Below, piece by piece: positions 17,888 through 64,000 of a stretch of 64,000 nucleotides of DNA (positions within the stretch are counted from its first letter, which is position 1; each line of letters begins with the position of its first letter). Source of the stretch: a virus; IMG/VR virus record IMGVR_UViG_3300043775_002552, positions 4,604-68,603 of that record. One strand, written 5' to 3'. Position numbers and translations under genes: made by a program. The notes under the pieces were generated by a model, which was given only the letters and a program-made list of their open reading frames with translations, had not been told where the DNA came from and did not search any database.

Positions 17888-20800
17888 ATGGCATCAAGTA
17901 ACAAAGTATTCGTTTCACCTGGAGTATACACTTCAGAGAGAGATTTAACATTTGTGGCACAAAGTGTAGGGGTTACAACATTAGGCATTGTTGGAGAAAC
18001 TCTACAAGGACCGGCTTTCGAACCAATATTCATCAGAAACTTTGATGAATTCCAAGTTTATTTCGGGGGTACAAGTCCTGAGAAATTTGTTAACACTCAA
18101 ATCCCAAAATATGAAGCAGCGTACATCGCTAAATCATATTTATCACAATCAAACCAATTATTCGTAACAAGAGTATTGGGCCTTTCAGGTTATGATGCGG
18201 GTCCATCATGGTCAATTAAAACCATAGGGAATATTGACCCAGCAACTTTAGGGGCAACAGGTAATACTGGTCCTGTGTATTTAAATTTTACAGGAACAAC
18301 AGGTAATAGTGGTAATGTTACAATAACTACGGTTCCTACTGCGTTATCATCAGTGTTTTATCAAACATATGAAACTAACACTAACACAACATCGTCAATT
18401 GATTATGACTTTAAAGTTGCGATTTCAGAACAACTTAATTTGGTTGCAACATCTGCATCAACTTCAGCTACAACCTCTTATTTTTGGGGTTCAGTTAGTG
18501 GAGGAACTTTATCAGATATTACAGGAGATTCTTTAAATACTGTTACTACTTTGTCAAATGTTTTAAGTGTTGATAATGTTAATTTAACAAATGCAGATTT
18601 GTCATCATACAAAAATGATGCATGGTACTACTCATTATTTAACTACGCATCAGGAGATTATTCAGGTTTTGGTTTTGGAGCATCTTTATCATCAATATCA
18701 GCTATAACGGCATCTGTTTATTCAGGTTCAATGGCTGTTTATTTAACAAATTATTCAGGTACCTCATACTCTGAATACGATAATTTAGTGGTTGCCACCC
18801 TTAGATCGAGAGGTATTTCACAATATACTAGTTCTCAAAAAGGACCGGCTTATGAAGTAACGGGAACTTCTGATGTTGTTTTAGTAACTAATGGTGTTTA
18901 TTCAGGAGTTTCCGAAAACCCACTTTCAACATTTGTGGTATCTGGGGTTTCTGCTGATGGAGACACATTTAATTTTGAAACAAGCCTTCAATCAACTGAT
19001 GTAAATTCATTAACAAATGTATTTGGAAGATCTAACTTTGGAAAAGATAGAGAAGAAGTTCCGTTATTTGTTGAAGAATGTTACTACTCTTTATTACTAA
19101 CAGGTTATAGAAATGGTAAAATTAGAGGTATAAATAATAGTTTAGTATCATTGCCGGGAGCAAGGTCTTTAGACGGTGATACTTTAGGTTTTTATCTTGA
19201 ACAATATCAAACACCAGAAACACCTTATGTTGTATCTGAATTAAGAGGTAATAAAACTTACAATTTATTTAAGTTTAAACTTATTTCTGATGGTAATGCA
19301 GCTAACAGATTGGTTAAAATTTCAATTGCTAACATGTCATTCAATAATGGAACATTTGATGTGTTCATTAGAGATTATTTTGATACAGATAGAAATGTTG
19401 TTGTTCTTGAAAGTTTTACAAATTGTTCAATGGATCCAACATTAAACAATTATGTGGCAAATAAAATAGGTACATCTAATGGTGAATTTGCACTTAAATC
19501 TAAATTTATAATGTTAGATATGAGTGAAGATGCTCCGGCAGACGCACTACCTTGTGGATTTGAGGGGTACATATCAAGAGAATATGAAAATGACACACCT
19601 CCGTTTGTGGTTTACAAAACTAAATATTTAAAGGCTGGTGATGTGATTTATAACCCACCGTTCGGAGCATCTTCAGGGGGAGACAATACGGTTATCTCAA
19701 GTGGAGAAAATCCAAGATTTGCATATTTAGGTATTTCAAACATCACGGGTTATGACTCTGATTTCTTCCAATATAAAGGTAAACAATTACCTGCTAATCT
19801 TGGAACCGATACTGTAGGAATAGATTGGGGTTATGTTACTAAAGGTTTCCACCTTGATAGTGGGGCGACTGTTGTGACAATTATTTCAGGTCCGACATCA
19901 GGACAATCGGCTTATGAAGTAGGTGTTGGGTCATTTAGAACCGAACCATCGGAAACTGACGATCCTTATTACAAACTTAACACTCGTAAATTTACATTAC
20001 TAGCTTACGGAGGGTTTGATGGATGGGATATTTATAGAGAATATAGAACTAACGATGACAGATTTATCTTAGGTGCTAGTGGTTTTAAGAATGGAGCTGA
20101 AGCGTCGATCACTTATCCTACAGCATCAGGATGGGGAGCGTTTAAACAAATTTCAGGACCTAACCAAGAAGTTTGGGCTAATACTGACTACTACGCTTAC
20201 CTTTTTGGACAAAAAACATTGGCTAATCCTGAGGCAGTTAACATTAACGTATTTGTTACTCCTGGTATTGACTACGTAAATAACTCAAACCTTGTGGAAG
20301 AAGCGGTTACTATGATTGAAACTGATAGAGCTGATTCAATTTACATCTGTACTACACCTGACTTTGATTTATTCTCACCAACTTTAGATCCGGTATTAAC
20401 TAACACAATCTACCCTCAAGAGGCTGTAGATAATTTAGAAGCAACAGGTTTAGATTCTAACTACACCGCAACTTACTATCCTTGGGTACTTACAAGAGAT
20501 AGTGTAAATAATACTCAAATCTACTTACCGGCAACGGCTGAAGTGACAAGAAACTTAGCGTTAACTGACAACATCGCATTCCCTTGGTTCGCATCAGCGG
20601 GTTACACAAGAGGTATTGTGAATTCAATTAAAGCACGTAAAACTTTAACTCAAGAAGATAGAGACACCCTTTACAAAGGAAGAATCAATCCAATTGCGAC
20701 TTTTAACGATGTGGGTACAGTAATTTGGGGTAACAAAACTCTTCAAGTTAGACAATCGGCACTTGATAGAATCAATGTTAGAAGATTGTTGTTACAAGCT

Positions 20801-21270: not shown

Positions 21271-21272
21271 TT

Positions 21273-31700: not shown

Positions 31701-31774
31701 ATTTAATTAAATTATACCAAGCAAAAGGGGAGAATGGTCCTAAATATAATTTTGTAAAAGATTTTAGAGGATAG
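25784..31774 (+). CDS. Giant baseplate/tube-initiator-like protein with N-terminal repeats and OmpA-like insertion
   Basis: W....FLGRTEPIYTY..TSRSG.I.F and PPICILRIGDFY..K.VI.SL...Y...PMIVDV.MSF are the two halves of a tube-like fold. About 7 NxYGP repeats. Adjacent to the LysM and hub genes. Confidence 0.6.
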   Translation: MESPLSFDSSENFRKKLLVRNLKPYSVDQSFNSSDVPGISDITLIDYSVIDSPSIDEIGQKQEGILYVQNQYAPNDQKELYGNVVNINLNQNTKSNDGIYDFSKTIGSQLETRGNSQEMLLYVNNLYGPNGDDKFGNTVNINENLQTNGNLGEYNLNFTNQSKLELFGNQQEIFLYTNNIYGPQNNNSYGETVDINQNLQLTTNVGEYDFTDSIGSKLESIGNFQEQVLYTNNIYGPSDNTSYGDSVNINQNKQFTANVGEYGPTTGTNPKTTDQSRNDSYVLNEYGPEDNDGYGTDINPVIESNLQTTSNRGFYDSNIGLYGDDLSLTLTPTPKTPSQYRDDLYVVNEYGPDNIDGYGFDVNPRFGANLQTTSNQGPYNEGASSGPELTSDQSRTFAYVKNEYGPESDNGYGDQINSIIDTNLQTTSNQGEYDYVLSPLPLTSTQSQAEAYGDNKYVNGDGSYEEVTISDLTEIIERTFLPYAESETTFIFVPSIYTPFEILEKQNPQGSDGSLSQDSSLAQLGAERLQKEFKARVALELLQQTVNRVNAFDTSINTDTGNVSVKPNTDPFNVIGIVSGNIPLLARDFTVTRPDLFLGQGINFAAKLAGLYSPYSYIPGEYFDYPKKRLVNQALENPIGAATQAIAGLVNKVTSLNIENGSELFLANTSQATSDLLFEQLSYNPYRPDYRGNSLRDPNLLAPKPIYYIGDRKSLLKSITPINQQPENRFGDITDAAVFGHGGLGTDYETYKERSVGKNFLFGLNSRGYYDGANNPNGTDAGTIYGGFTWGSSDSGTIGKKIGYNNEVYGEAGQDEVLLSGLRGTLAGDYGSFRPDSILDVTNKLVLKSEEASGLYKQRHVGNAISQVSKVFNDGNIELTKGSRVIRYSTPTSKNSENANDVVGYEYCRVFTKDNPYYLYSNLQKTAKNIRGFDNSVLTNTYNLNIAPTSDFNSSTIDYANRKVKKYMFSLENLAWRTSNSPGFTVEDLPVSEIGPNGGRIMWFPPYDLTFSEDVKTNWTDHTFLGRTEPIYTYGSTSRSGSIGFKILVDHPSILNTIVKKELAKTSPESKLTKVVDSFFAGCTQYDIYDLLKKFAEFSISDVYAVRQELGDIASGAGVPETTQETKSGDFSVYFNKVSLFFDNNSPTDDTTSYDTLLTEYKNKIDGEYQTRCKNIFINYSNKDYEADIVAQKQDVNFFEDTIDATVAGINDFKKYIESNYDTFNTKLLKDIKGFLKQKEGNELTLEVKGNALPYLSKSDNKKLSEKRFNSLKEYLKKDKDIGKLVDKQFIIVDKSDGKPIFSLNNENNYDKIDCNTPFKGQDADKETGVYSVNAMFCRSLQITNILLKENNKPNGDNPDSENTSTLPENGIEQKEGTETTPQEIKPQIPPNTRKDIVKRLLRKLLKESDYFEMIQENEPMLYDGIKQKLRHFDPAFHSMTPEGLNSRLTFLQQCMRPGDTIPTVKNVEGETTKLDYSDAFNSAFGSPPICILRIGDFYHTKIVIDSLGFTYDDVAFDLNPEGIGVQPMIVDVKMSFNFIGGQGLREPIEKLQNALSFNYYANTEMYDERADETEPVSDKLTAELIALGQEALGIRTNTTTKPNTDGGDPIGTIVNQIVDPNNGAVTGDIFYEKPFNDYVNTTKNYFESVIDGLSQINNDFLYGGLILATKERNYVEGTIRGGGTGATETKLFGHNVNLQQKVDTLFEKTNKDVKDDVSPLLEDINTKNFKNSDIRDYKKKIEELLNTKQQDYLSNLKKSLLKSDQEQLNLIKLIDKLSFVSGDKDGYKTSKGVAVIYQISGKTEGGTTNTLVDYKKDMDTIIGDTQKFYSTLYKYKLIPSGTTEEYNENFDFEIPFFPYTNVDTTKPVENRLYMTLGVDIIDKKIDVINNLYSSVENSDNSADWKLYIENTVNKLSTKYIKCSSDFAISNNKFINDEFILSIKTNYRKDLTSKKRTMNYSVQTPTNTTDGNNLIKLYQAKGENGPKYNFVKDFRG
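25979..27160 (+). repeat. Seven-plus tandem ~52-64 aa coding repeats
   Basis: Y.xN.YGP....YG..(V/I)N...NLQT..N.G.Y unit repeated seven times plus a partial copy. Confidence 0.85.
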
Positions 31775-41896: not shown

Positions 41897-41917
41897 AAAC
41901 CTTATAAGAAAAAATTA

Positions 41918-43377: not shown

Positions 43378-43415
43378 AGATATTTATTAAAAACAGGAAA
43401 CAAACTTAAAACTAT

Positions 43416-44795: not shown

Positions 44796-44822
44796 CAAAT
44801 AAATTTAATAAATTAATACAAA

Positions 44823-47510: not shown

Positions 47511-47514
47511 AAAA

Positions 47515-49429: not shown

Positions 49430-52400
49430 ATGTCCAAAAGTTATAGGCTTCGCACAAAACCAGGTGTCGATCAAAACATAAGAATTAACATAAATCAAGA
49501 TTTTGACTTTCTTGAAATTTTATCATTAAAATTAAAACAAGAGGACGTATATACAAGATTTTGTGCTGACTACGGAGTTGTTGTTGGTAGGGTTATTGCT
49601 AACGGAGGGTTTGGAATACCAAACGCAAATGTCTCAATTTTTGTACCATTAAGTAATATTGATGAAAACGATCCTGTTATATCGACACTTTACCCATATA
49701 AGTTTTTAGAGCAAAAAAACGAAGACGGTTATAGATATAATCTGTTACCATACGTTCAAGAATATAATGGACATACACCTACCGGAACATTCCCATCAAG
49801 AGAAGATGTTTTAACAAGAAAAGAAGTATTAGAGATTTACGAAAAATATTATAAATACACCGTAAAAACTAACGAAAGCGGTGATTTTATGATTGTAGGG
49901 GTACCATTGGGAAGTCAAAAAATAGTTTTGGATTTAGACCTTTCAAATATGGGATGTTTTTCTCTACGTCCTGCAGATCTAATTAGAATGGGTAGGGGAA
50001 CACCCGAACAATTTAACGGACAAAGATTTAAGTCATCTGAAGATTTAGCATCACTACCACAAATATTAAATGCGGCAAAAGATATTGACGTTGCACCTTT
50101 TTGGGGACAAGATGAAATTTGTAATATTGGAATAACTAGAACTGATTTTGATCTTAGAGATTATAATATAGATATCAAACCACAGGCAACATTTATGGGG
50201 TCTATTTTTTCTTCATCAGAAGAAGATTATTTAAGAACAAATTGTAAACCAAAAAATGATGTAGGAAATCTTTGTGATCTAGTAACGGGGCCAGGTCGTA
50301 TTTTAGCAATAAGACAAACAAAAGATTACGATGTTGATGGAAGACCCGTCTTAGAACAATATAATTTAGAAGAAGGGGGTAATGTAATCGATGAAAATGG
50401 TGCTTGGCTTGTAGAAGTACCGATGAACTTAGATTATGTCACAACAAATGAATTTGGAGAACAAGTGTTATCTGCAGACCCAAAAGTCGGAGTACCAACA
50501 AAAGGTAAGTACAGATTCAGAATTAAATATCAAAACGAGTCAGGGTTGGCATCACCAATTCAAAGAGCCGATTATTTGGTACCTAATGTAAAAGAATGGG
50601 GATGGACTGGATCTTCAGAAAACACAACTTCAGCACCACCACTTGATACCGTTACACAATTAAAAAACTATGCGTTTAGTTTAGATTGGGCAGATTATGG
50701 TAATACCGGAACTACTCTTGGCCTTGCAATGATACAAGAAGCAATTGAGTGTAAAGATAGATTTTATGAATTTAATTATAATAAAGTTTATACCGTTGCG
50801 TCTTTTATTGATAGATGGAAGTGGGGTTATGGTAGAGCAAGACACTTGGGGATAAAAGAAATCACAGATAGATCTTGTTTAACATCAACAAATAGATTTC
50901 CTGTTAATGATGGTGTAAGAAATTTTGATTTTATTTTTTTCCTATTTAACTTGTTTATATCTATTTCTGCATTGATTATATATCCTCTTTTGGTTTTGAT
51001 GCATGTTTTGGCGTCTTTATATCCGATTTTAAGAGTTATTGTTAATATAATAATATGGATTATAAACGTTATTGTTTATGCGATATGTGTTGTTGTCGCA
51101 GCTCTTAGCTCAAAACTTAAAAAGGAAGATTGTAAAAAATCAACAATAAAGCCATTGTCTGAGGATAACCCTTTTAAAAGGTTATCATTTCCAATGATAT
51201 CATATCCTGATTGTGAGGCGTGTGCTTGTGAGGCATCAGATTTAACAACCGATGGTGGTGATTTTGCACAGCAAGCATCTACAACTGTTTCATCTGTTAA
51301 TGTTTCACTTTTGTCTGATATTAATTCGGTGGCATCTTTTAATAGAGATTTTTATGCCGTTGAAGGAGGAATAGGTAATAGTGTTAATTATAATACAGGG
51401 GCCAACCAACTTTTTTCTGGATACCAAAGACAAGGGACTTCTGCGAGTAGAGATAAATTAGTTAAATTACCTTTAGTTGAGGTGCCGGAGCAGGGAGGTG
51501 GTGATTTATATTTAGGTGCTGATGTGACATTATCGCAATCATTAAATTTAATGAATTTAAGATCTCGTTATTTTAGTGGTACCGGACCAAACAGAATAAA
51601 AACGATAGTTTATAATAATAACCCAGTAACTAATGTTCCTGAACCATCACAACCATTTGAGGATAGTATTTTAATTATTCTTTGTGATCCGGGAACTTTA
51701 AGTAATTTAACGCCAGGACAAATACTTAGTTTCAACAATCCGGCAAGTATAAATGACCCAAATATTACAGGTTTAACTGTTGCAAATCAGTTTAATACTA
51801 ATTCAATTACAGGTACCACGCCATATAATGCAACCCAATTAGTTACTAAAACAATAAGTAGTATAGGTCCTAATTCGATTATCACGACTTCAACACTAAA
51901 ACTTAAAATAAGTGAAAACGGAAAACAATACAAGTTTAAATCAGGTATAGAATATTTCCAAGTATTAACAGGAGACACATATGTAAATTACCAAAACTTA
52001 GTAAGTCAAGCCGTTACGGGTTCGGGTGGTGCGGCAAGATGGAACTCAATTTTAAATGAATATTTGTTTAAAAAAATACAATCCGTTAGATATTCAACGG
52101 TGGGATATCCGTCTGCAGGTGCAGGGTTTAGAATAAATGATTACTCAACGGAATATTTAGAGGGTAGGGATGACTATGAAATAATATTTTTAACGAGAGG
52201 TGTTGATCCATATACCGAAAAACAAAAAATAAAATACGATTTATCAAAAATATTTGGGTATAATTATGGATCAGGTCCAATAATTGAGGGTGATTATTAT
52301 TTAAATATACCAATACAACCTAACACAGGATCCGGTAACTGGTATAATAATTTGTTAACTCCTGAATCTCACGATGTTAGTAATAACACCAATACAAAGT

Positions 52401-54391
52401 TATATCACGAACCATTTGGTTTTAATGTGGACACCTCAGCATTTACGGCATTTACAAATAATTCACCACATTATTACAACTCAACGGATAAATCAAGATC
52501 AAATCACGTTGCGTATAATGGAGATATAATAACGTTGGGACAAATAACATCCCCAGCAAATCCGTCGAATGGAGGAATATCAACAAGTAATAATAAACTA
52601 TGGTTTCAAGTTTATTATGTTCCACCAACAGGAGGGGCCGGATATGATATAAATAAACAACAAGGTTTAATAGAAGGAGGTTCTTTACAGGCTAGTACGT
52701 TTGTTCCTGATTTAAATATTGATCAAGCAATAAATTCAGTAGAATTACCACCAAACAACATTTTAAGAACTTATTCGCCAGCATATCATTTAGAAACGCT
52801 CAATAATCCAAATATAACAATAACTGCAAATAATAGATTGGTGTTTAGATCTGATCGTTTACCTACTTCTGATATTACTGAGGTTTATGGAAACACATCT
52901 TTTTCATTACATTTAAATGATAACTTTGGATTTTATTTAATAGATGATACTGGTGGATTTACAACTCCTGCAATGTCAAATAATGCTACTGACAACACAG
53001 GTTCTGCCGCAAACTTTGCAGAAGATGGGGGAGCATTTACCGATGTTGTGGATTCTCTTTCTTGTGAAAATATGGTACCACTTGGTTGTTACGAAGGGTC
53101 TGGAACCAATTTTGGAATTAATGAAGATTGTGATGAAAACAAAATGGGTAAAGATGATACGAACCGAAGAGTTGTTGGTGGTTGTTATTATTTTGTTGAC
53201 AATCCATTAATTTTTTCTTTACCTAAAGATATTAAAGCATTTGAAGAATGGAAAAGTAGATTTAGATTTCAGTTTGCCGCGTGTAGAGGAGTAATAAGTC
53301 ACGTTTTTCAAAACAATTGGGTTAATGGATCGTTATATATGTTTTCATTTAAAAACGCAAAAAGATTTACAATACTTGGGGATTTAAAAAGATATAAATA
53401 TTGTGGAGACCCATTAAGTGTTAGACCGAGTCAGGGACCATTAATTTTTACATTTGGAACCACTAATTCGTTTTTTTATAGGGCAACTCCGTACTATTAC
53501 CAAACAGATAAATTTATTGGTCAATTACCCAAAAAGATTGATGTCAATCCTATTTTAAATGATCCTTGGGAAAGTGCTGATAACTACGGAGGAATGAACA
53601 CAAAGAATATTTTCTTCCCTACAACCGTTATGGATTTAGGACCAAGAGATGAATTTACAAAAGAAATTTGTTTTAATCCCCAATTTGAAGGTTATTTAGT
53701 CGATACAATAAGAACAACGTCGTTTAATGATGGATCGGACATACTTCAGTTATTTATCTTATCTAGACTTATAAATTCAAACTTTTGGGGACAAGCATTG
53801 GCGTTGGGTGACGCATCAATTAATAGAATATTTAGTAGAAGTGAAGATAGAGTTGATGGTGATTTTGCACAAACAATGAGTATTAATTCAGAATATGGTG
53901 TTGAAGGGTTTAGTAGTGATGATTATGATCAAAATGATATATATGTAGAAAATAGTGGAGGTGATCCATTATTTGGTATTTTATTTTCTTCTGATACTGC
54001 AAGTAGACAATTACTATCCCCTGGTAAAACAAGTTATACAAATTTTGGATACCCTAAGACGCAAGTTGTACCATTATATAAATGGAAAAGTCAAAGTCAG
54101 ACAACAATTTTTGGAAAAGACACAAATGAATGGGTAACGGGAGGGTCAAACTTTTATTCTCAACCATACCAATCAATGGATTTTACACAAACAGAATATT
54201 TTAAACCAGGAAATGGAGAAAAATTGGGATACATCTATAATAGAACATCAGGATTAGTTCCTACGGTTACTTGGCCAAACGGACAACCAACATCATATGT
54301 TGTTGGTGCTCCTTATCACTTCTATTTTGGGTTAACAAAAGGGGCAAGTGCCATGAATAGATACATAACTAAATATATTTTTAATCAATAA
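49430..54391 (+). CDS. Large baseplate-region protein with central transmembrane-like hairpin
   Basis: N-terminal GVVVGRV....G.GIPNA.VS and TN.SGDFMI.GVP.G (carboxypeptidase-regulatory-like). About 60-aa hydrophobic stretch and Cys clusters. TATTTAT at 49410. Confidence 0.6.
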   Translation: MSKSYRLRTKPGVDQNIRININQDFDFLEILSLKLKQEDVYTRFCADYGVVVGRVIANGGFGIPNANVSIFVPLSNIDENDPVISTLYPYKFLEQKNEDGYRYNLLPYVQEYNGHTPTGTFPSREDVLTRKEVLEIYEKYYKYTVKTNESGDFMIVGVPLGSQKIVLDLDLSNMGCFSLRPADLIRMGRGTPEQFNGQRFKSSEDLASLPQILNAAKDIDVAPFWGQDEICNIGITRTDFDLRDYNIDIKPQATFMGSIFSSSEEDYLRTNCKPKNDVGNLCDLVTGPGRILAIRQTKDYDVDGRPVLEQYNLEEGGNVIDENGAWLVEVPMNLDYVTTNEFGEQVLSADPKVGVPTKGKYRFRIKYQNESGLASPIQRADYLVPNVKEWGWTGSSENTTSAPPLDTVTQLKNYAFSLDWADYGNTGTTLGLAMIQEAIECKDRFYEFNYNKVYTVASFIDRWKWGYGRARHLGIKEITDRSCLTSTNRFPVNDGVRNFDFIFFLFNLFISISALIIYPLLVLMHVLASLYPILRVIVNIIIWIINVIVYAICVVVAALSSKLKKEDCKKSTIKPLSEDNPFKRLSFPMISYPDCEACACEASDLTTDGGDFAQQASTTVSSVNVSLLSDINSVASFNRDFYAVEGGIGNSVNYNTGANQLFSGYQRQGTSASRDKLVKLPLVEVPEQGGGDLYLGADVTLSQSLNLMNLRSRYFSGTGPNRIKTIVYNNNPVTNVPEPSQPFEDSILIILCDPGTLSNLTPGQILSFNNPASINDPNITGLTVANQFNTNSITGTTPYNATQLVTKTISSIGPNSIITTSTLKLKISENGKQYKFKSGIEYFQVLTGDTYVNYQNLVSQAVTGSGGAARWNSILNEYLFKKIQSVRYSTVGYPSAGAGFRINDYSTEYLEGRDDYEIIFLTRGVDPYTEKQKIKYDLSKIFGYNYGSGPIIEGDYYLNIPIQPNTGSGNWYNNLLTPESHDVSNNTNTKLYHEPFGFNVDTSAFTAFTNNSPHYYNSTDKSRSNHVAYNGDIITLGQITSPANPSNGGISTSNNKLWFQVYYVPPTGGAGYDINKQQGLIEGGSLQASTFVPDLNIDQAINSVELPPNNILRTYSPAYHLETLNNPNITITANNRLVFRSDRLPTSDITEVYGNTSFSLHLNDNFGFYLIDDTGGFTTPAMSNNATDNTGSAANFAEDGGAFTDVVDSLSCENMVPLGCYEGSGTNFGINEDCDENKMGKDDTNRRVVGGCYYFVDNPLIFSLPKDIKAFEEWKSRFRFQFAACRGVISHVFQNNWVNGSLYMFSFKNAKRFTILGDLKRYKYCGDPLSVRPSQGPLIFTFGTTNSFFYRATPYYYQTDKFIGQLPKKIDVNPILNDPWESADNYGGMNTKNIFFPTTVMDLGPRDEFTKEICFNPQFEGYLVDTIRTTSFNDGSDILQLFILSRLINSNFWGQALALGDASINRIFSRSEDRVDGDFAQTMSINSEYGVEGFSSDDYDQNDIYVENSGGDPLFGILFSSDTASRQLLSPGKTSYTNFGYPKTQVVPLYKWKSQSQTTIFGKDTNEWVTGGSNFYSQPYQSMDFTQTEYFKPGNGEKLGYIYNRTSGLVPTVTWPNGQPTSYVVGAPYHFYFGLTKGASAMNRYITKYIFNQ

Positions 54392-54393: not shown

Positions 54394-56106
54394 ATGAGTC
54401 AGGAAAGTGAAGTTAGAATAGTTTTAGGATCAAAAAGAAATGCAACAACACCAAATAGGGATGTAGAATTACAAGTACCACTTTTTGGTGACCAAAATTC
54501 TTATACAGAAAATGACAGAACGGTACTTATAAATTTACAAGAAAGATTTAATCTTGAAAGACAAAAAAGCGATAAAATTAGATTGTCAGGTAAACTTGTA
54601 AATTTATTTGATAACACTTTAAGTGGTAAAACTAATTACACTCCTTTTAAAAACAATCTTTATTACTTAAATCCTGAAGAATCTATAGTAACTAATGTGT
54701 GGCAAGGTTTTCCACAATATAGTGAATTTACTTTTGGTAGATCACAAGGAATAGAAGGTCATATTCCATTTGTTCCTAAAAGTGCAAATACGTATAATTG
54801 GACCGTTTATGCTTCATATGCGTATTCTAGTACTACCGCGCAAACAATGTCATATACTGATGAAAGAAATGGTGTCACAATTAATAGTTTTCTTTGTTCT
54901 GATGGAATACCTTTTGTTATAAAAAAAGGAAGTTATAATGGAAAAAAAGTTATTTATTTTTATTGTGGAACTAACCATAATTTATCGGTTGGTCAGTGGG
55001 TAGAGTTGTCATCTCCGATAAATAATAAAACGGTTTTTAGTGTTTTTGGTTTAGGGGATGGAACATATGGATCTGAAAATAAAGTATTTTATATTTTCAA
55101 TTTAAAGTTTTCTAATTTAAACGTATATAATGGAAAATCAGGAACATTTAAAAGAATAACAAATTTACAAAATAGTGGGGAAACAAAATCTAGATACTAT
55201 GTTAGATTACATAAAATTTTAACAGATGTTGATGAAGTAAATCTGACAAAAATTGCATTTGAAAATAACCCATTTGGTATTAAGAAAAAATTAGAATATT
55301 CTGGATTAACACCAAACCAAACACAGAGAGTTTCAATAAAGGAAGATTCACAATCTTTTTCTTTTACGTTTAATAAAGATATACAGGTTAACCCTTTGGT
55401 TGATAATAATGGAAAACCGGTAACAGAGCTTTTTGTGACAATTTTAAACAAAGGTTATATGGGTTGGTTTAATAAACCGGGATATGATCAAAAAGCGATT
55501 GACATTGGGTGGGAGTTTAATTTTTTAAAAGATAGCGTTGATAATTGGTGGAACCATACCTCCATAAATAATAAAGATAATATACCAACAGGTAGTTATA
55601 ATTTTAATGGAAATACTTTTTTCTATAATAGAGATCTTAAAACAGGTAGTGTTATAAAAGGTGATTTTTGTGAGTTTAATGATATGGAACAAAAAGAATA
55701 TGTGATATCAAAACTTTATCATAAATACTCTTTTAATCCCATTTTATTTCTTGACAATTCACCATTTAATTTACCTGCAGGGTATTGTTATATTCCACAT
55801 CATTCAATACCAATAAGACAATATAGTGATTATATTGAAAGTTATACTCAAGAAGGTACAACAAATTTACCTGTAGTAGATATACCTAATTATTCTTGGT
55901 ATTCAGATTATGAAAAAAATTGGTATTGGAGGGATATATATGATTATGGGTTTATTGATGCCGAAAATAGAGGTATTGACTTTCCTTTTACAAATGACGC
56001 ACATTACCCATTTACGACAATAAATTTTTTACAGACGCCAATAAAACGAATTACTTATGTTGAAACAACTTTAGTCAATTCACCAATATTTGATAATTGT
56101 GAGTAG
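54394..56106 (+). CDS. Putative baseplate/structural protein
   Basis: Long ORF within the baseplate operon. Beta-rich composition. Confidence 0.55.
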   Translation: MSQESEVRIVLGSKRNATTPNRDVELQVPLFGDQNSYTENDRTVLINLQERFNLERQKSDKIRLSGKLVNLFDNTLSGKTNYTPFKNNLYYLNPEESIVTNVWQGFPQYSEFTFGRSQGIEGHIPFVPKSANTYNWTVYASYAYSSTTAQTMSYTDERNGVTINSFLCSDGIPFVIKKGSYNGKKVIYFYCGTNHNLSVGQWVELSSPINNKTVFSVFGLGDGTYGSENKVFYIFNLKFSNLNVYNGKSGTFKRITNLQNSGETKSRYYVRLHKILTDVDEVNLTKIAFENNPFGIKKKLEYSGLTPNQTQRVSIKEDSQSFSFTFNKDIQVNPLVDNNGKPVTELFVTILNKGYMGWFNKPGYDQKAIDIGWEFNFLKDSVDNWWNHTSINNKDNIPTGSYNFNGNTFFYNRDLKTGSVIKGDFCEFNDMEQKEYVISKLYHKYSFNPILFLDNSPFNLPAGYCYIPHHSIPIRQYSDYIESYTQEGTTNLPVVDIPNYSWYSDYEKNWYWRDIYDYGFIDAENRGIDFPFTNDAHYPFTTINFLQTPIKRITYVETTLVNSPIFDNCE

Positions 56107-56935
56107 TAATTATTATAGATATAAAATAGACGGACCGCCAAAAACGGCATACATCAATATCCCAATTCAAATTACTTTTGATAATTTAGGTAGAGAAGAT
56201 GGTATTAAAGAATTTGAAGAAGAGGTTATTGAAGATATAATAAATCCAATATCTGATTTTGAAACCACAAGATTTGCACATGCCACTTGGGGGACTGATT
56301 CTGAAACTAATATAAATTATAATTTTTATTTTTATAATGGGGGTTCTTCACAAACGGTAACTGCGACCACCAACGCAAACAATTGGGTTATAGATTACGA
56401 GGCTGCCGGATTTTTAGATAAAGAAATATATTATTTTGCAAATTCATTTAAAGGGAGTTTTTTCAAGCTTGATTTTTATGATAGTAGTTCACCAACAGAA
56501 CAAAAAATATTATTTAGTTTAATATTGCCGACACAACAAGGACTTTTAGAAGACGGTTTTATCGGACCAAGTGTAAACCAAACTCCAGTGAAAGTTAAAA
56601 GACCTAAATTCGTATTAGATTATACGGGAGCAGATAAAGAAGGTTTTTTTATTTATTGGTTAAAAAATATTTCGTATTTGGATCAAAAAGAATTTTATAT
56701 GAGCGCAAAATTTTTTGATGCAAAAATTGGTCAGTTTGTTAGAATGATTAACAAACCGCAAGGGTTATTGTTTAACAAATTTAATTTTGATAAAAAATAT
56801 CTTTTTTATTATAAATGTGTTTTGGATTATAATAATTATGAATATAAGATATATTTAGAAAATACAACAGGAGGACTAACAAGGGTTGGAACAACGTCAA
56901 GTCCGATAAAATGGTATGAATACGTCAACCCATAA
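56099..56935 (+). CDS. Putative structural protein
   Basis: Likely GTG start at 56099 overlapping the previous gene. Operon context. Confidence 0.55.
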   Translation: MSSNYYRYKIDGPPKTAYINIPIQITFDNLGREDGIKEFEEEVIEDIINPISDFETTRFAHATWGTDSETNINYNFYFYNGGSSQTVTATTNANNWVIDYEAAGFLDKEIYYFANSFKGSFFKLDFYDSSSPTEQKILFSLILPTQQGLLEDGFIGPSVNQTPVKVKRPKFVLDYTGADKEGFFIYWLKNISYLDQKEFYMSAKFFDAKIGQFVRMINKPQGLLFNKFNFDKKYLFYYKCVLDYNNYEYKIYLENTTGGLTRVGTTSSPIKWYEYVNP

Positions 56936-58065
56936 TGGATGCTATCAAATATTCAATTGTCATATCTCCAGAAAATGTAAAAGGAGATTTAGTATTTTTA
57001 CCATATAGTGGTACGTACTATTCAGAGCAGTGTGGTATACCGACAGATGAGGACAAAGTTTTTAACTTTGGTCTTTATTCTGCATTCACAGAAGTCATTA
57101 GTTCAGGACCCAACGGGAGTTCATCATTAACAGGTCTCACAATACCAATATTATTTACTCAATCAATAAATGATATTGGGTATTATTCAGAATTTGACGG
57201 ATTTATTTTACAAAAAGACGTTGCTTGTAATTTTGTATATACGGGAAACACTTCAAATAGTTACAACATAACATTATATAATAAATCAGGAAGTTTATTT
57301 CAAAGTTTTTTACAACTTTCAAACTACGAAGTTAATTGGGGGGATGGTACACCCGCATCAACCTTCAATCAAGGAGATGCGATTTTAAATCATACTTATC
57401 CTTCCTTACCATCAGGATACACAATAACGTTAAAACAGATAAATCCTTGGGGAATAACAACCATTAATAAAAAAGTTAAGATCCCTTTTACAGGTGTCAC
57501 GGTAGATAACCAACAAGGTGAAATATTTTTCACACCACAAGGTGGGAGTTGGTCGGGGATACCGTTAAGTTATGATTATATTTTTACAGGTGATTCAGGA
57601 TATGATATATCCCAATATTTAAGTGAAAACTATACTGACGTTCCTTTTGTTGTTTCAGGTTACACTAAATCTAAACTAATTGACTTAAAAAAATATGGAC
57701 CAACACCATATACGATCGGATATATAAAATATTCTAAAGGGATCCCTGTTGGACAAATAAATGAAATTACTCAATTATATACCGCATATACAATAAATAG
57801 CGTACAATATTACGACTTCAGCGATGGTACAACTTTCTTTATGGCAGAATCATCAGGGATTACAAGTAATGAATTTGTCGTTTCAGCGCTTACTAAAAAC
57901 GAATATTTGTTAGATTTTGTTATGGCACCTGAAATAAACTCAAATGTTTATATAGAAAGAGGAAAGTTTTCGGCCTATGAACCATTACAAAGATTAGGTG
58001 AAGTTGATAACATTGGAGATTTGGTGAGGTACGGATATGGTTATTATAAAATAAATGTAATATAA
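56935..58065 (+). CDS. Putative structural protein with PKD-like domain
   Basis: VNWGDGT...HTY....YTITL...NPWG, a PKD-type motif. Confidence 0.6.
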   Translation: MDAIKYSIVISPENVKGDLVFLPYSGTYYSEQCGIPTDEDKVFNFGLYSAFTEVISSGPNGSSSLTGLTIPILFTQSINDIGYYSEFDGFILQKDVACNFVYTGNTSNSYNITLYNKSGSLFQSFLQLSNYEVNWGDGTPASTFNQGDAILNHTYPSLPSGYTITLKQINPWGITTINKKVKIPFTGVTVDNQQGEIFFTPQGGSWSGIPLSYDYIFTGDSGYDISQYLSENYTDVPFVVSGYTKSKLIDLKKYGPTPYTIGYIKYSKGIPVGQINEITQLYTAYTINSVQYYDFSDGTTFFMAESSGITSNEFVVSALTKNEYLLDFVMAPEINSNVYIERGKFSAYEPLQRLGEVDNIGDLVRYGYGYYKINVI

Positions 58066-58097: not shown

Positions 58098-59006
58098 ATG
58101 GCTTTAGGAACTTACGGAATAAATAGACCTGCAGACGTATCACCACAAGATGTTGAGATACTTTTACATTACACCCCATCAAGGGACGTGACTAATAATT
58201 TTATTTTAAAAAAATTAGACGCTTCAACCATTTTAACTCCGTATTTTCATAATGACAATACTGGAGGTAATGCAAACGTTGAAATATTAGGTGGTCTTTA
58301 CAACTTAAAACTCCCATCATCAGAATTTAATAATTTGGGAATATACACTCTTTACATTAGACCTGCGGAAATAAGAACAACTATTCTTGATTGTGGGGTT
58401 TTGTCTGCACTTCCAAATGTTAAAGGTATTGTAATAGATATAAATCAAGTACCATCACAATATCGTAATAAATTTATAAATCAAGGCCTTGTAGGATTCA
58501 GAGTTGAATATTTAAATGCTGATGGAACAAAAATACCTAATTTTTATAGAATAATTACCTCGTCTTTTTATTGCGAGCCGGTACTTACAAATCAAACAAA
58601 TACATCACAAAAGGCGATTAGATATCGTTATGTTAATTCAGGGTCGGATTTAATATTTTGCACACTTTCACCATCCGCATCCCCAACAAACAAACCAAAC
58701 GCATTACCATTTATTGGGCAACCTGATCAAAGTATTATTATTACAAATACCTTTTTCAATCCAATTACGATAGACATTCAAATGGCAGAACACGACATTG
58801 ATACATTAGCGATTGCCCTTTATGGTAATCAAACTAAAAGTATCGACGATGGTATTTATACACTTTACGATAGTTCGGGTAATATCTATAAACAATACAA
58901 CTTGTTTGAAATTAGAGATAACTTTAATGAGTTACTTTATGAGGTTAGACAAGATAGAGGTTCTTCTATCGACTTCAGTAAGAACTTTACAAATATTATT
59001 AGTTAA
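58098..59006 (+). CDS. Putative baseplate/structural protein
   Basis: Clean ORF between structural genes. Confidence 0.55.
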   Translation: MALGTYGINRPADVSPQDVEILLHYTPSRDVTNNFILKKLDASTILTPYFHNDNTGGNANVEILGGLYNLKLPSSEFNNLGIYTLYIRPAEIRTTILDCGVLSALPNVKGIVIDINQVPSQYRNKFINQGLVGFRVEYLNADGTKIPNFYRIITSSFYCEPVLTNQTNTSQKAIRYRYVNSGSDLIFCTLSPSASPTNKPNALPFIGQPDQSIIITNTFFNPITIDIQMAEHDIDTLAIALYGNQTKSIDDGIYTLYDSSGNIYKQYNLFEIRDNFNELLYEVRQDRGSSIDFSKNFTNIIS

Positions 59007-61978
59007 TGGCTAGAAAGAAGTTTTTTTATCCACCTGTACCTCCTGTAGGATCACAAACGTTTTCTGATAATTTAGTCGGTCTTCAGTTAGTGCAAGGTGG
59101 GGGGTTAACTCTCGGTACTTTTGAGTTTACAAGTGCGATATTTGAAAAAAGTAATCGTAATTTCGATACGGGAATATTTTCACAACCGTATAATTTAACA
59201 AATCTTGACATAAGTAGTGTTGAAGAGAGTAAGTTATTAGTTCAAAAGAACTTTCAGGTTTATCCTAATTTTGACATTTCACAAATTACAAGTTTTTCAC
59301 TTTATGGGTCTTTACAAAAAAGGTTAGAGGTTTCAATAACAAAATCCATTAATTATTTTCCGGCGGCTATTATAGCTAAAAAAAATATAGGTACTGGCTA
59401 TAGTGCAATAACAGCGAATAATATTATATACGATCAAATTGGAGATGAAACCACGTTTGAAATTGATGTAAAATATTTAACAAATCCATTTGATATTGAT
59501 TATAGTGTAAACGCGACTAGTAATTTGGTTCAAAGCCCAATGTCTATTAGTGAATTTAGAAATTTAACAAAAGAGTTTAAAAAATATGCAATTTATATTG
59601 GTAGTACGGATAATGAAGAATACAATCTTACAGATTTTACAGCATCCCCAAGTTTAACTGGAGGTACTATAACAATAACTGTACAAGGTAAACCTTTTTC
59701 AGGGTTAACATCATTTACTGAAACAATTATAATCAAACCAAACAATATTACAACTGAAAAAATATTTAGTGATAGTTTCGATGAGGTTGAAGATTTTTTA
59801 CTAAATAGAAATGTCAGTCCTAAATATACTGCAACATTTACATATCCTGAATATGATGATGATGGTACATATATTTTAAATTCTAAAAGTGTAACTTGGC
59901 CTTTATCGGATGAATGGAATATAGATATTAGATCGTTAGGTTTTGAAAATTACATTAACGAAGTTAAAACAATTGCGGAGTTACTCGATAGTTATAAAAC
60001 TAATTTAATATCAAGATTTTTAATTACTGGATCCCTAAAAGATTTTGACACACCAGACCAAAAATTAGAAAAAGTATTACAAATATATGGTAGAAGTTTT
60101 GATGAAACTAAAAAATTTATTGATGCGTTAGCGAACATTAATTCAGTTAATTATATAGTTGGAAATGATATTCCGTCACAGTTATTGGTAAATTTGGCAC
60201 AAACCGTCGGATTTGACCCTAATGTTTCACCAATAACTAATGAGGATTTTTTAAATAGTATTTTTACAACATCTAATGAGTCCGACTACGGAGGAATGTC
60301 AAAACCAATGACACCAACCGAGCTTAATTACCAATTTTATAGAAATTTAATTCTTAACTCGGCATATCTATTTAAATCTAAAGGTACAAGAAAATCCATA
60401 GAGTTTGTAATGAGAATGGTTGGTGCGCCTGATGCTCTTATTGAATTTAATGAAAATGTTTATTTAGCGGATGGCCCAATAAACTTTAATGATTTTAGAG
60501 ATCAATATGTTTGTTTATCGGGTAGTACTCTATTATTAGATACGCCGGCATTTGATACTACGAACACATTTACAATACAAGGGATATTATATACTGGATT
60601 TACAACAGTTAACACATTACAGACGGTTACTGCAACATTTGAAGATTTCCCAATTTATGAAGACGGATACCCAAAGGCAGTTGAGGACTCACCTGATTAT
60701 TTTTTCCAAAAAGGGGCTGGGTGGTTTGAACAAACACCTGAACATACATCATTAGAGGTTGTTGATGAAGAAAACTCAATATTTAGTGGGAATACCGTTT
60801 CTTTGGTTACAAAATTTAAGCCATTTACGTATGGTCAAGATTGGCTTGATAGATTTAGAAAGTTTCCATTTATGACAAACGTTGGTTACAATTTAGTTAG
60901 AACGGTGGATAATACTAAATCATGGCCAAAAACCGAAGTCGGAATTAGAAGAAATCAATCACCAAATTCGCCAACATACTATAGAGTGGATGACGACAGG
61001 TTAGTTATAAATGTTAAAAACATTGATCTGTATTTAAATATGGGTCAGGGGATTACTTATGACGTTTGGGAACAATCCGTATTGTATAACTATCCAATAC
61101 CAAATTCCGGATTAACGGCTCCTTACCCAACACCTGGTGATACTGATTGGACTGTCATAAACCCTAAACCCGATCAAAAAACGTTTTTTGAATTTGCTCA
61201 AACATTTTATAATAATTTAATTAACGTTAGAAACAGACAATATATAAGTGACGGTAAAACAGGAGGGTATCCTGCATTACAATCAATTTTTTGGAAGTAC
61301 TTACAAAGCGACGAAGCGATCAATATTCCGACCAATAAATTTACTTATCAAAAAATGATTGATTTTACATTAGCACTTGGTGATTATTGGGTGAGACTTG
61401 TAGAACAATTTGTTCCTGCCACTACTATTTGGAATACGGGTCAAAAAATGGATAATAGTATTTTCCATAGACAAAAGTTTGTTTGGAGAAGACAACGTGG
61501 ATGTGAATTTATACCCGTTAATTGTATTCCTTGTACGTTTAATGGTCAACCATTTGGTTATGATTGTATTGATCAAACGTTAATCTGTAGTTTAGATATT
61601 GGACAGAATTATGGTGCCACTACGTTAAGTGAAGCGTTAAATAATTTGATTAGTGAACAAGGATATATTCAAAATCAGTGTGACTTAAACGGAATGAAAA
61701 GTTATTGGTATATTGATGTAAGACTTGATGATGTGACTCTAATTCAAGAACAATTTTATACTGGTTATGGGAGTGTGGACTATCCGACACAATCAACTAT
61801 TTTTAATTCAATAAACGAAAAACTTGAAGGTTTATATGTTTATGGGTTAAACTATTATTTTGCGGGTAGCTCATTAGTTATTAGTAATAGTAGTTGTTAC
61901 GATGAATTTACAAATAAAAAACTGTATTTAAATATTGGGATTATGATTGATATAAACTGTAATAATGACGGAGAATAA
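59006..61978 (+). CDS. Baseplate wedge protein (T4 gp7 / P2 gpI-like)
   Basis: L...A...G and YRNLILNSAYLFKSKGTRKSIE....G motif. C-terminal L.EQFVPATT. Confidence 0.65.
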   Translation: MARKKFFYPPVPPVGSQTFSDNLVGLQLVQGGGLTLGTFEFTSAIFEKSNRNFDTGIFSQPYNLTNLDISSVEESKLLVQKNFQVYPNFDISQITSFSLYGSLQKRLEVSITKSINYFPAAIIAKKNIGTGYSAITANNIIYDQIGDETTFEIDVKYLTNPFDIDYSVNATSNLVQSPMSISEFRNLTKEFKKYAIYIGSTDNEEYNLTDFTASPSLTGGTITITVQGKPFSGLTSFTETIIIKPNNITTEKIFSDSFDEVEDFLLNRNVSPKYTATFTYPEYDDDGTYILNSKSVTWPLSDEWNIDIRSLGFENYINEVKTIAELLDSYKTNLISRFLITGSLKDFDTPDQKLEKVLQIYGRSFDETKKFIDALANINSVNYIVGNDIPSQLLVNLAQTVGFDPNVSPITNEDFLNSIFTTSNESDYGGMSKPMTPTELNYQFYRNLILNSAYLFKSKGTRKSIEFVMRMVGAPDALIEFNENVYLADGPINFNDFRDQYVCLSGSTLLLDTPAFDTTNTFTIQGILYTGFTTVNTLQTVTATFEDFPIYEDGYPKAVEDSPDYFFQKGAGWFEQTPEHTSLEVVDEENSIFSGNTVSLVTKFKPFTYGQDWLDRFRKFPFMTNVGYNLVRTVDNTKSWPKTEVGIRRNQSPNSPTYYRVDDDRLVINVKNIDLYLNMGQGITYDVWEQSVLYNYPIPNSGLTAPYPTPGDTDWTVINPKPDQKTFFEFAQTFYNNLINVRNRQYISDGKTGGYPALQSIFWKYLQSDEAINIPTNKFTYQKMIDFTLALGDYWVRLVEQFVPATTIWNTGQKMDNSIFHRQKFVWRRQRGCEFIPVNCIPCTFNGQPFGYDCIDQTLICSLDIGQNYGATTLSEALNNLISEQGYIQNQCDLNGMKSYWYIDVRLDDVTLIQEQFYTGYGSVDYPTQSTIFNSINEKLEGLYVYGLNYYFAGSSLVISNSSCYDEFTNKKLYLNIGIMIDINCNNDGE

Positions 61979-64000
61979 TGGCTTGTGTTTCAGGTTTAAC
62001 AAATGGGGTATTTAGTTACGTTGATTGCTGTGGGATATTACAGACCGGAGTATCTTTAGGTCAAAGCATATGTTTAGACGAAGCATTTACTGGTACTTCA
62101 TTTGGTGTTTATATCGCTTCAGGGCAATCTTGTACTCAAAACTGTAACCAGGGTACGTTAAGTTATAGTTTTCAAGTTACGGGTGTTTGTGATACATCTT
62201 ACGGGCAGATAATATTTACACCTTCTGGTGGTATACCTCCATATACGATAGATCCTGTAACACCTACCGGAACTACATTAACTGCACAAACAAGTAGTGG
62301 GGATATCACCTTTACTGGTTTAACAGGTGGGACTTATGTTTTCCGTCTAAATGATTCACAAGGGTTACAAAACAATGAATTATATATTAATACAATAATA
62401 TCAAATTGTTTTGAAGCTAACGTATATGGGGTTTCAGGATCAACTTGTGGTTTAAGTAATGGATATATTAACATAACCGCAACGACAAGCGCGTCTCCAT
62501 ATACTATTATTGTTTATAAAGACGGAGGTGTATTTAATGTATCAACAGAGGCGACATTACCTGTAACATATTCTAATTTACCTTCAGGAATTTATTATGC
62601 GACGGTTTTTGATTATGGGTCAGTGACGGCAAATACTGAAAATTTTGTAATAGATGAAAGTGTTGGGGTTGATTTTGGTTTTTGGAAAGTTAACACATCG
62701 ACTTGTGTTATTGATAAAGGTAAACTTGCGGTAACGGGATTAACGGGTACTGGTCCGTATACTTTTTTATGGAGTAATAATGAAACAACCCAATTAGTTA
62801 CGGGGCTTACACAAGGTACATATAGTGTTACTGTGACGGATGCGTTAGGATGTTCAACCACAAAGTCTGAACTTATTGGAACTGCAGACCCTATAGGTCT
62901 TGGGTTTTTGACTGCAGTTAATCCGTCTTGTTTCTCAAATGATGGGTCTTTAACTTTTACAATAACAGGAGGTACGGTTCCTTTTTATTATTCTGCTTCT
63001 ACCTATGAAGTGGGGTATACATTATCTGATACGTTTACAATATCTAATTTGGCTGGTGGGGCGTACCAAGTATTGGTAAGAGATGCTAATTTTTGTGAAG
63101 TTATTTTAAATGGTACCATAAATACCGTTAATGGTTTTAATGTTGTTGAAATTGCAACTACACAATCATCTTGTAATCAGACTAGTGGAAAGATTGGAGT
63201 AACTATAGAAGGTGCGAACAATTTTTATACGTACGCAATTTCAGGATTAACCACAAATTACACCAATGGAATAACCACTCAAAGTCAAACACATAACTTT
63301 ACTAATTTATCAAACGACACTTATTTATTAGTTATATCAGGATCGGGTACAAATTGTAGTTATAGTGAATTTGTTACAATCGCTTCAGTTGATAAGTTTC
63401 AAGTAAATTATACTGCAACAACCGCAAGTTGTGGGTTAAATAACGGGGTTATTAGTGTTGAGGTAGGGACTGGTTATACGGGAGTATTAGATTATGTTTT
63501 AAGTGACGGACAATCAATTATAGATACGCCATCTACCGCTTACACATTTAGTAATTTAGTTGAGGGTCAATATACGTTAAGTGTTACCGATAATGAAAAC
63601 TGTACGGTATCTAAAGATTTTGAAATAACAACAACAGGGGAATTAGCCTTTATGGTTAATGCTGTTGATTGTACTGGGGTAAATGATGGGTCGGCAAGTG
63701 TTTTAATAAATAAAGGGGAACCTACATTTGCATATGAATGGTCCGACAATGTGCCAGGAAACCCAACAGGGTCTACGGTTACAGGTTTATCGGGGGGTAC
63801 ATATTCGGTAATAGTTACGGATAGTAGTGGGTGTAGTAATAAACAAATATTTGATATATTGTGTGGAAATAGTAATATTGTTTCTTATCAAATTGTCAAT
63901 CTTTGTGTTAATGAGTTTAATACCCAATCAGGAAATAAAAGAGGTTTTTCTGAAATGTTAAATGAAGGGTTTTTAGATTTAACAAATGAATACACAAATT
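61978..64000 (+). CDS. 3'-truncated SprB-like repeat protein (putative tail fibre/adhesin; not in ORF track)
   Basis: ATG overlaps the previous TAA and the frame appears open to the window end. Repeats include SCFSNDGSLTFTITGGTVPFYY and GPYTFLWSNNETTQLVTGLTQGTYSVTVTDALGC. Confidence 0.8.
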   Translation, partial: MACVSGLTNGVFSYVDCCGILQTGVSLGQSICLDEAFTGTSFGVYIASGQSCTQNCNQGTLSYSFQVTGVCDTSYGQIIFTPSGGIPPYTIDPVTPTGTTLTAQTSSGDITFTGLTGGTYVFRLNDSQGLQNNELYINTIISNCFEANVYGVSGSTCGLSNGYINITATTSASPYTIIVYKDGGVFNVSTEATLPVTYSNLPSGIYYATVFDYGSVTANTENFVIDESVGVDFGFWKVNTSTCVIDKGKLAVTGLTGTGPYTFLWSNNETTQLVTGLTQGTYSVTVTDALGCSTTKSELIGTADPIGLGFLTAVNPSCFSNDGSLTFTITGGTVPFYYSASTYEVGYTLSDTFTISNLAGGAYQVLVRDANFCEVILNGTINTVNGFNVVEIATTQSSCNQTSGKIGVTIEGANNFYTYAISGLTTNYTNGITTQSQTHNFTNLSNDTYLLVISGSGTNCSYSEFVTIASVDKFQVNYTATTASCGLNNGVISVEVGTGYTGVLDYVLSDGQSIIDTPSTAYTFSNLVEGQYTLSVTDNENCTVSKDFEITTTGELAFMVNAVDCTGVNDGSASVLINKGEPTFAYEWSDNVPGNPTGSTVTGLSGGTYSVIVTDSSGCSNKQIFDILCGNSNIVSYQIVNLCVNEFNTQSGNKRGFSEMLNEGFLDLTNEYTN

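Follow-up and report, generated by a model that had tools for sequence, protein, structure and literature searches.

The stretch of DNA analysed here (the window) is 64,000 nucleotides long, corresponds to bases 4604 to 68603 of the 68,603-bp viral record IMGVR_UViG_3300043775_002552 in IMG/VR, and has a G+C content of about 31%. By family and profile matches it was annotated as part of a distant T4-type myovirus, the record being about 22% complete by CheckV estimate. The subject of this study is a short amino acid motif, [ST][GA]x[ST], together with its extended form, hydrophobic-[S/T]-[G/A]-x-T, which recurs in several predicted virion proteins of this phage, and which a preliminary description of the same sequence had suggested to be a modification sequon, most simply for O-glycosylation by the phage's own glycosyltransferases (GTs). 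The relevant genes are collected in Table 1. Beyond the baseplate wedge genes lies a series of large proteins without family assignment, the last of which, an SprB-repeat protein, reaches past the end of the window.

No cultured phage is near: the closest GenBank matches to the tail sheath are 31-35% identical, the protein of 376 amino acids (aa) has zero tblastn matches among GenBank phages, and the SprB-like open reading frame (ORF) has a single weak one. In IMG/VR the phage is part of a very large uncultured group, with at least 532 loci confirmed by tblastn and with 1168 and 1335 clustered homologues of the 376-aa protein and the sheath insertion, respectively. Complete relatives span 292-310 kb (G001; G006, 99% complete; and G026, 100% complete with terminal repeats), and the group is one of T4-related jumbo phages of roughly 290-310 kb. 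Synteny between the window and G001 runs from position 9030 on.

Table 1. Features of the window (positions in window coordinates; motif copies as observed vs expected from shuffles)
Feature	Position	Strand	Motif copies	Remarks
Accessory island	1-9024			End of 1472-aa leucine-rich repeat (LRR) protein, GT25, two sulfotransferases, phrog_4417 ORF, coiled-coil protein, DUF2827, DnaJ-like ORF
GT25 and two sulfotransferases	1372..3189	+		PF01755 E 5e-12; PF17784 E 6e-12; PF03567 E 2e-5
647-aa coiled-coil fibre-like protein	4583..6526	+		Repeated 'DLSTEVANRE...' heptad-like units
DUF2827 protein	6600..7853	-		Predicted cytoplasmic glycosyltransferase; PF10933 E 1.6e-98
Phage Fe/Mn superoxide dismutase	13459-14178	-		Sod_Fe_C E 2e-43
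Tail sheath, 1062 aa	17888..21076	+	17 vs 5.9	phrog_23 E 9e-55
Sheath insertion, aa 118-365	18240..18980	+	13	Motif-dense part of the expanded non-core region
1996-aa giant ORF	25784-31774
2170-aa giant ORF	32086-38598
SSB, UvsX, exonuclease, DnaB, ribonucleotide reductase	39684-46682
gp25-like and gp6-like wedge proteins	47046-49356
1653-aa protein	49430..54391	+	8 vs 4.8, p 0.12	Mild excess; gp7 position behind gp25-like and gp6-like genes
570-aa baseplate-module protein	54394..56106	+	5 vs 1.1, p 0.003	No family match
376-aa protein	56935..58065	+	10 vs 1.5	PKD-like segment, about aa 110-190
990-aa protein	59006..61978	+	8 vs 2.4, p 0.007
SprB-repeat fibre-like protein	61978..63999	+	23 vs 6.4	Runs off 3' end of window
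Family-B DNA polymerase; SNF2 helicase; Fe/Mn superoxide dismutase; gp19-like tube; T4 baseplate protein				Further annotated genes

Motif counts and motif-bearing proteins in the window

Expected counts were obtained from 1000 whole-protein shuffles of each protein, and additionally from shuffles within blocks of 20 or 40 residues. In the 17 structural ORFs the motif was found 89 times against 39.7 expected (z 8.2), and its hydrophobic-prefixed, Thr-final form 42 times against 7.0; the 21 non-structural ORFs held 13 copies against 7.7 (z 1.9, 1.7-fold). This comparison had been proposed in the preliminary description, and it came out as anticipated there. The counts that had been made by eye were all reproduced as well. 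The 376-aa protein contains precisely the ten tetrapeptides that had been listed, nine of them with a final Thr; 13 of the 17 sheath copies start within the insertion, for which about 13 had been reported; the six and five copies listed for the 990-aa and 1653-aa proteins are among the eight that each of them carries; the 'many more' ascribed to the SprB-like protein amount to 23; and the family-B DNA polymerase has two copies only, TGLT and TGNT. A hydrophobic residue does often precede the motif, position -1 being hydrophobic in 62% of the copies against 34% in the background. What had been described as a feature shared across virion proteins proved to be narrower, however. The enrichment is confined to five of the 17 structural ORFs, i.e., the sheath, the 570-, 376- and 990-aa proteins and the SprB-like protein (all p≤0.007), while the remaining 12 pooled have 26 copies against 22.6 (z 0.7), and single ORFs such as the 1996-aa (3 vs 5.3), 657-aa (2 vs 2.7), gp6-like (0 vs 1.3) and 302-aa (0 vs 0.7) ones are not enriched.

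The enrichment withstood every control that was run. Pooled over the ORFs from position 17888 on, it amounted to 95 copies against 43-47 (z 8.0-8.2), and since the 20- and 40-residue block shuffles gave the same z, local richness in Ser, Thr and Gly is no explanation of the excess. Exclusion of the SprB-like ORF still left 72 copies against 37-39, and 11 alternative orders of the same residue classes gave z values of -1.3 to 3.6. Because the pattern had originally been picked by eye, an unbiased scan of 1991 three-class reduced-alphabet patterns was made, in which [ST][GA]x[ST] ranked first (z 8.2); the runner-up reached z 5.1, and several of the runners-up were fragments of the same extended motif. 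The effect is a three-way dependence: [ST]G.T occurred 43 times against 12.9 (3.3-fold), while [^ST]G.T and [ST]G.[^ST], in which one hydroxyl position is excluded, stayed at 0.99 and 0.91 times the expectation, and dipeptide biases were only 1.15- to 1.4-fold. The Ala form followed the same rule, with 23 copies of [ST]A.T against 7.7 and two of [ST]A.S against 7.0, and [ST]G.T with a hydrophobic residue before it was found 29 times against 4.4. Spacing among the copies showed no periodicity apart from a slight excess at 5-7 residues. A DNA-level motif was rejected, since the motif is encoded with background codon usage, and since the other five frames yield 0.84-1.49 times the expectation; an N-x-[ST] pattern was likewise rejected (0.92-fold). 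No homology was detected among the carriers, which the preliminary description had called non-homologous: an all-vs-all BLASTP gave one match (E 0.064), hhalign of the 376-aa against the sheath family gave a probability of 0.6%, and the 376-aa protein had no internal self-match in BLASTP (E<0.1).

The C-terminal core of the sheath is homologous to T4 gp18 (gp18 structures at E 1e-31 to 1e-33; PDB profile matches 9mkb and 3j2m), with aa 717-1062 aligning to gp18 residues 301-653. The motif-dense insertion matches no Pfam family, even at E≤1, and the alignment to T4 gp18 suggests that it faces outward. The 376-aa protein has a PKD-like segment but falls short of filed PKD membership: it has no Pfam match at E≤0.01 and stays under the PKD (PF00801) gathering cut-off, its similarity to the PKD domain 1wgo has an E of 0.1, and Atlas leads were below 0.9, while PF00801 is precomputed on two of its homologues. 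Giant proteins of 2000-7300 aa, P0246 and P0296 among them, contain 8-42 tandem segments similar to the PKD-like one, which match positions 105-185 of the profile. The 990-aa protein, which had been called 'gp7-like', has no family match; only DUF7784 appears, under its cut-off, at E 0.003. The SprB-like ORF does pass the Pfam cut-off (PF13573, E 3.3e-14, 52.7 bits vs 28, in three stretches), and by our reading about half of its motif copies coincide with 'SGGT' and 'TGLT.G.Y' positions that belong to the repeat itself. The sole cellular relative found for it comes from a metagenome-assembled genome (MAG) of a Flavobacteriaceae member, at 30% identity, which is a weak hint that the phage group possibly has a Flavobacteriaceae host. 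A copy 88% identical to the SprB-like fibre lies on a 4522-bp contig (L134, CAYGYN010000032.1) filed in a 'Candidatus Woesearchaeota' MAG; this is probably a phage contig misbinned into an archaeal MAG.

Distribution and turnover of the motif in related phages

The enrichment is shared by all 120 related IMG/VR loci. Orthologues of the 376-aa protein mark 86 of these loci, in each of which the ratio of observed to expected copies was between 1.67 and 4.38 (median 2.63; summed, 4679 vs 1794.5), and the hydrophobic-prefixed form reached a median of 7.7-fold; the 34 loci from more distant sister lineages were enriched 1.33- to 4.63-fold without exception. Where a motif-poor lineage was sought, among the relatives of P0364, a homologue with 0 copies, the nearest IMG/VR ones (40-47% identity) were all enriched. 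The tail and baseplate ORFs of G001 held 175 copies against 71.9 (z 12.6), and the motif ranked fourth among the patterns there, after Pro/Thr-linker patterns only. Enrichment at p≤0.02 was seen in 22 of the 302 ORFs of G001. Among them are the sheath, the fibre module, several proteins of unknown function, and the gp23-like capsid protein, which has four hydrophobic-prefixed copies against 0.5; in the remaining ORFs the prefixed form stayed near expectation (29 vs 27.8). In relatives, it is the N-terminal part of the capsid protein that also carries the motif. As a separate observation, the tail and fibre ORFs at 54-112 kb of G001 have [ST]P.P, P.P[ST] and P[ST]P as their most over-represented patterns (z 13-15); Pro/Ser/Thr linkers are classic O-glycosylation substrates in other systems.

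The individual families behave alike. In 41 homologues of the sheath the count is 12-18 (median 15, expectation 6.0), with 469 of the 620 instances in aa 110-360 and with five sites kept in all 41. The 376-aa family is represented by 56 sequences of 51-80% identity; the number of copies per member is 6-13, where 1.55 would be expected, and they are distributed over 12 recurrent sites, of which TGLT is kept in 56 of 56. Orthologues of the 570-aa protein have 3-5 copies in the eight of nine loci that contain the entire gene, and a partial copy in L009 has three; even the 1653-aa protein, only mildly biased in the window, has orthologues with 3-5 copies of the hydrophobic-prefixed form against 0.7-1.1, in the seven of nine loci that contain the gene. 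Between the window and G001 (58% identical overall), 51 of the 86 motif sites in 14 orthologous structural pairs are retained (59%), as compared to 24-41% for 11 permuted, composition-matched patterns in the same pairs. The motif sites are therefore under purifying selection, in keeping with the selection surmised in the preliminary description, and, together with the first rank in the unbiased scan, this establishes the motif as a real, selected, protein-level element.

At greater distance, the sites turn over. In 18 homologues at 24-33% identity to the 376-aa protein, the full motif is kept in 25 of 138 aligned site-instances, although the YTGYT site is old, being present in 13 of the 18. 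Some sites were completed in the clade of the window around a pre-existing Gly or Thr ('FGKSR' to 'SGYTKSK', 'MLTRNE' to 'SALTKNE'). In the same distant homologues, the conserved part is Gly at site 241 or Thr at site 317, in places where the flanking Ser/Thr are not kept, which indicates that these two residues have a structural role of their own. Many of the distant homologues carry 9-15 copies at partly different positions. Replacement residues at the recurrent sites formed no clear acceptor-like or cap-like pattern.

Glycosyltransferase genes of the group

The enzymes to which the motif had been tied lie in the accessory island at the start of the window. Its 1472-aa protein has 17 LRR stretches, and the island is taken together with positions 1502-5920 of G000, the record of the window (L137:1502-5920). 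No part of the island has a homologue in G001, a syntenic relative that is 99% complete. The DUF2827 gene was found in one of 22 related records, namely the window's own (a positive control worked), and GT25 in three of the 22, G001 not among them. The preliminary description had predicted that motif enrichment would follow the DUF2827 gene and a second, 'GT96-like' one, and had stated that equal enrichment in relatives lacking them would speak against the idea. It does: 86 of 86 loci are enriched, and G001, without DUF2827 and GT25, is as enriched as the window, so that the link to the named GT genes is refuted. The 'GT96-like' label itself found no support, since the ORF in question (phrog_4417) has no Pfam match and no PDB match beyond chance level (E 0.4); DUF2827 had no match in the PDB sequence search either.

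In a recent preprint, DUF2827 proteins are proposed to be cytoplasmic GTs adjoining trimeric autotransporter adhesins (bioRxiv 10.64898/2026.01.22.700529), and the pairing is echoed in the window, where the DUF2827 gene adjoins that of the 647-aa coiled-coil fibre-like protein, with the phrog_4417 ORF on the latter's other side. Being an accessory gene of this record only, DUF2827 cannot account for a group-wide motif. The coiled-coil protein has the motif at background (6 vs 5.4), and may be a candidate substrate of the island enzymes.

Glycosylation in general may nevertheless occur, because the group has two further GT2-type genes in its core set. One encodes a GT2 of 269 aa (142564-143373 in G001), the other a Glyco_tranf_2_5 protein whose C-terminus is variable (129270-130733 in G001). 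Both were found in each of the four related records with a completeness of 52% or more, and also in sister clades at 42-50% identity, i.e., in every lineage examined; they lie outside the 22% fragment that the window's record represents. They adjoin a dUTPase/dCTP-deaminase-like gene and an exonuclease. Neither has a tblastn match in 50,697 GenBank phage records, which implies that T4, Microcystis phage Mel-JY01 and Prochlorococcus phage P-SSM2 are devoid of them. Around these shared enzymes, related phages carry differing glycan-building islands, as judged by G000 and G001: the G001 island (131.5-139.4 kb; L021:11504-19385), absent from G006, encodes a methyltransferase, GT2_4, Glyco_transf_7C, a GT10 fucosyltransferase and a GDP-mannose 4,6-dehydratase. 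The sugar-synthesis islands thus look hypervariable among related phages. Such richness in sugar enzymes would agree with a virion coated in glycans, and equally with modification of DNA or of the host surface.

A structural element or a recognition site

Overall, the original proposal is partly supported, in that selection on a shared short motif was found and a role of the named GTs was not; it offers an experimental lead rather than a demonstrated system. Our narrowly preferred reading, to which we assign a probability of only about 0.4, is that the motif is a selected strand-turn structural element. The hydrophobic residue would close a beta-strand; the Ser/Thr-Gly pair would form a tight turn or bulge, in which the hydroxyl caps the backbone and Gly adopts an unusual backbone angle; and the final Thr would open the next strand, the same turn solution being re-used in the many small beta-rich surface modules of this lineage. 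ST-turns and beta-bulge or hairpin turns of this kind are well known, with Ser/Thr-Gly at the end of a strand, a hydrophobic residue before it and a beta-branched residue opening the next strand. Several features of the sequences agree with such strand-turn-strand geometry. In the 376-aa family, x is hydrophobic at eight of the 12 recurrent sites and position +4 is often Ile or Val, and the flanks of the motif have a Chou-Fasman beta propensity of 1.10 and 1.08 against 1.03 (p 3e-4 and 3e-3; a crude measure), a context that would fit embedded beta structure rather than flexible linkers. SGYT aligns with the 'PG.Y.V' turn-plus-strand of the SorCS2 PKD domain (1wgo), and the Flavobacteriaceae SprB-like protein shares the 'SGGT.PY' and 'TGLTAG.Y' positions; some copies may thus be turn residues proper to the PKD (PF00801) and SprB (PF13573) domains, although such coincidence with turns of known folds covers only a minority of the copies. 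We also count in favour of a structural role that positions are strongly conserved (TGLT throughout the 376-aa family, and the five invariant sheath sites), that the motif does not track the accessory GT genes, and that a milder bias exists outside the lineage. The baseplate module of P-SSM2 has 86 copies against 57.9 (1.5-fold, rank 15), and this, together with the 1.7-fold excess in the non-structural ORFs of the window, indicates a weak general tendency. The motif presumably sits at the surface, on outer virion modules: the insertion of the sheath, the fibre and peripheral baseplate proteins and, in relatives, the N-terminal part of the capsid protein. If it is structural, it marks unannotated surface modules with a common building rule, and would help to spot outer virion proteins in an abundant uncultured group.

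A number of results weigh against this reading. A turn signature would be expected in comparable proteins, and generic beta-rich virion proteins do not have the bias: the 24 structural proteins of T4 hold 43 copies against 45.9 (0.94-fold, rank 1144 of 1937 patterns), its Hoc one against 3.3, and 17 coding sequences of Mel-JY01 have 34 against 27.2 (1.25-fold, not significant). The same applies to proteins sharing domains with the carriers, since ten giant proteins with 8-42 PKD-like repeats are not enriched (e.g., 51 vs 50.1 and 88 vs 89.3), and the bacterial SprB-like protein has just 26 copies against 21.3 overall; most of the enriched regions here, among them the sheath insertion and both the 570- and the 990-aa protein, lack a family match. 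The 2- to 6-fold effect is specific to this phage lineage, and generic ST-turns and bulges explain neither this lineage- and virion-specific excess nor its absence from T4, Mel-JY01 and the PKD giants; likewise, a purely structural element leaves the restriction to five proteins unexplained. In addition, a few homologues with the same fold carry only 0-3 copies (P0364, P0336, P0360). Copy numbers and positions vary in such a way that density is upheld with positional turnover in most lineages and the fold is not strictly dependent on the motif, a behaviour more in keeping with a recognition motif than with a structural requirement at fixed sites.

A sequon stays in contention, albeit as a doubtful and somewhat less likely explanation. 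The sequon would be embedded in the fold and read by a core cytoplasmic GT, accessory GT25 and DUF2827 not being that enzyme, and the variable islands would elaborate the first sugar. In its full form, hydrophobic-[S/T]-[G/A]-x-T would be the site read by a core cytoplasmic GT2-family enzyme of abundant, approximately 300-kb aquatic jumbo phages, whose hypervariable islands (fucosyl, sulfated and others) would build strain-specific coats on sheath, fibres and capsid; this, too, we consider possible at best. In its favour are the selection on the motif itself (first in the scan, 59% retention vs 24-41%), its restriction to the virion proteins of one lineage, the density that persists in distant homologues despite turnover of positions, and the lack of enrichment in PKD-repeat giants and the bacterial SprB-like protein. 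The gene content also agrees, with a core GT2 and Glyco_tranf_2_5 in the group and none matched in GenBank phages, and with different multi-enzyme islands in relatives (GT25, sulfotransferases and DUF2827 in G000; GT10 and others in G001). Acceptors within folded beta structure have precedents, as in autotransporter heptosylation. On the other side, the replacements bear no clear acceptor signature, and the accessory GTs do not track the motif. No tested lineage is without the core GTs, not even weakly enriched ones (G028/L161, 1.4-fold), and the contrast between this group and the three outgroups T4, Mel-JY01 and P-SSM2 amounts to a single phylogenetic event. Furthermore, the core GTs stand beside nucleotide-metabolism and exonuclease genes, and could equally modify DNA or host glycans. 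The motif is a candidate sugar-attachment site, and we have placed the strand-turn element above it because no modification is demonstrated, the named enzymes fail, and the context resembles ordered beta structure.

Known glycosylation systems provide partial parallels. A 2023 study by Freeman and colleagues in Cell Host Microbe is said to have described virion glycosylation by phage-encoded GTs in mycobacteriophages. There, as in the present group, the genomes encode GTs and virion proteins are the proposed substrates; we know of no [ST]-G-x-T sequon from that system, and full-text literature searches gave no description of an [ST]-G-x-[ST] phage sequon among the matches listed. The general O-glycosylation sequon of Bacteroidota, D-[S/T]-[A/I/L/V/M/T], is similarly short and centred on Ser/Thr, and the phylum may include the phage host. 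It differs in acting in the periplasm, out of reach of phage structural proteins, and was rejected as a candidate here, D[ST][AILVMT] occurring 254 times against 294.1 in 280 ORFs of G006. Should the motif prove to be a sequon, tailed-phage virions would have their first glycosylation code defined by sequence; glycosylated virion proteins would become predictable from metagenomes, the fast-changing sugar-synthesis islands would be explained, and phages would have a counterpart both to O-antigen variation and to the glycosylation that chloroviruses and mimiviruses encode themselves.

The same evidence for selection and lineage-specificity, none of which is tied to sugars specifically, would also accommodate recognition by another shared factor or a shared surface property, such as a fibre assembly chaperone, a different Ser/Thr modification or an uncharged, hydroxyl-rich patch; this explanation is unspecific, no candidate factor was identified, and we regard it as improbable. 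Least probable by far is an artefact of composition or hidden homology (Ser/Thr/Gly-rich sequence, cryptic internal repeats, or a DNA-level motif), which is already largely refuted by the block shuffles, the permuted class orders, the excess left without the SprB-like ORF, the codon usage and other reading frames, and the absence of similarity among the carriers and within the 376-aa protein, even though part of the SprB-like count stems from the repeat signature and some proteins of relatives resemble short cryptic beta-solenoid repeats (e.g., G001 121361-122086).

Some further observations were made in the course of the analysis. The superoxide dismutase encoded in the window has a G001 copy that is 69% identical. 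The 1996- and 2170-aa giant ORFs, which flank a 105-aa ORF resembling gp25 and the baseplate wedge, have no Pfam or PHROG match, and their G001 orthologues are 39-47% identical. G001 also encodes, at 181308-190067 on the minus strand (L024), a 2919-aa ORF consisting mostly of collagen-like GTS/GTN triplet repeats; the GT25 family includes collagen galactosyltransferases.

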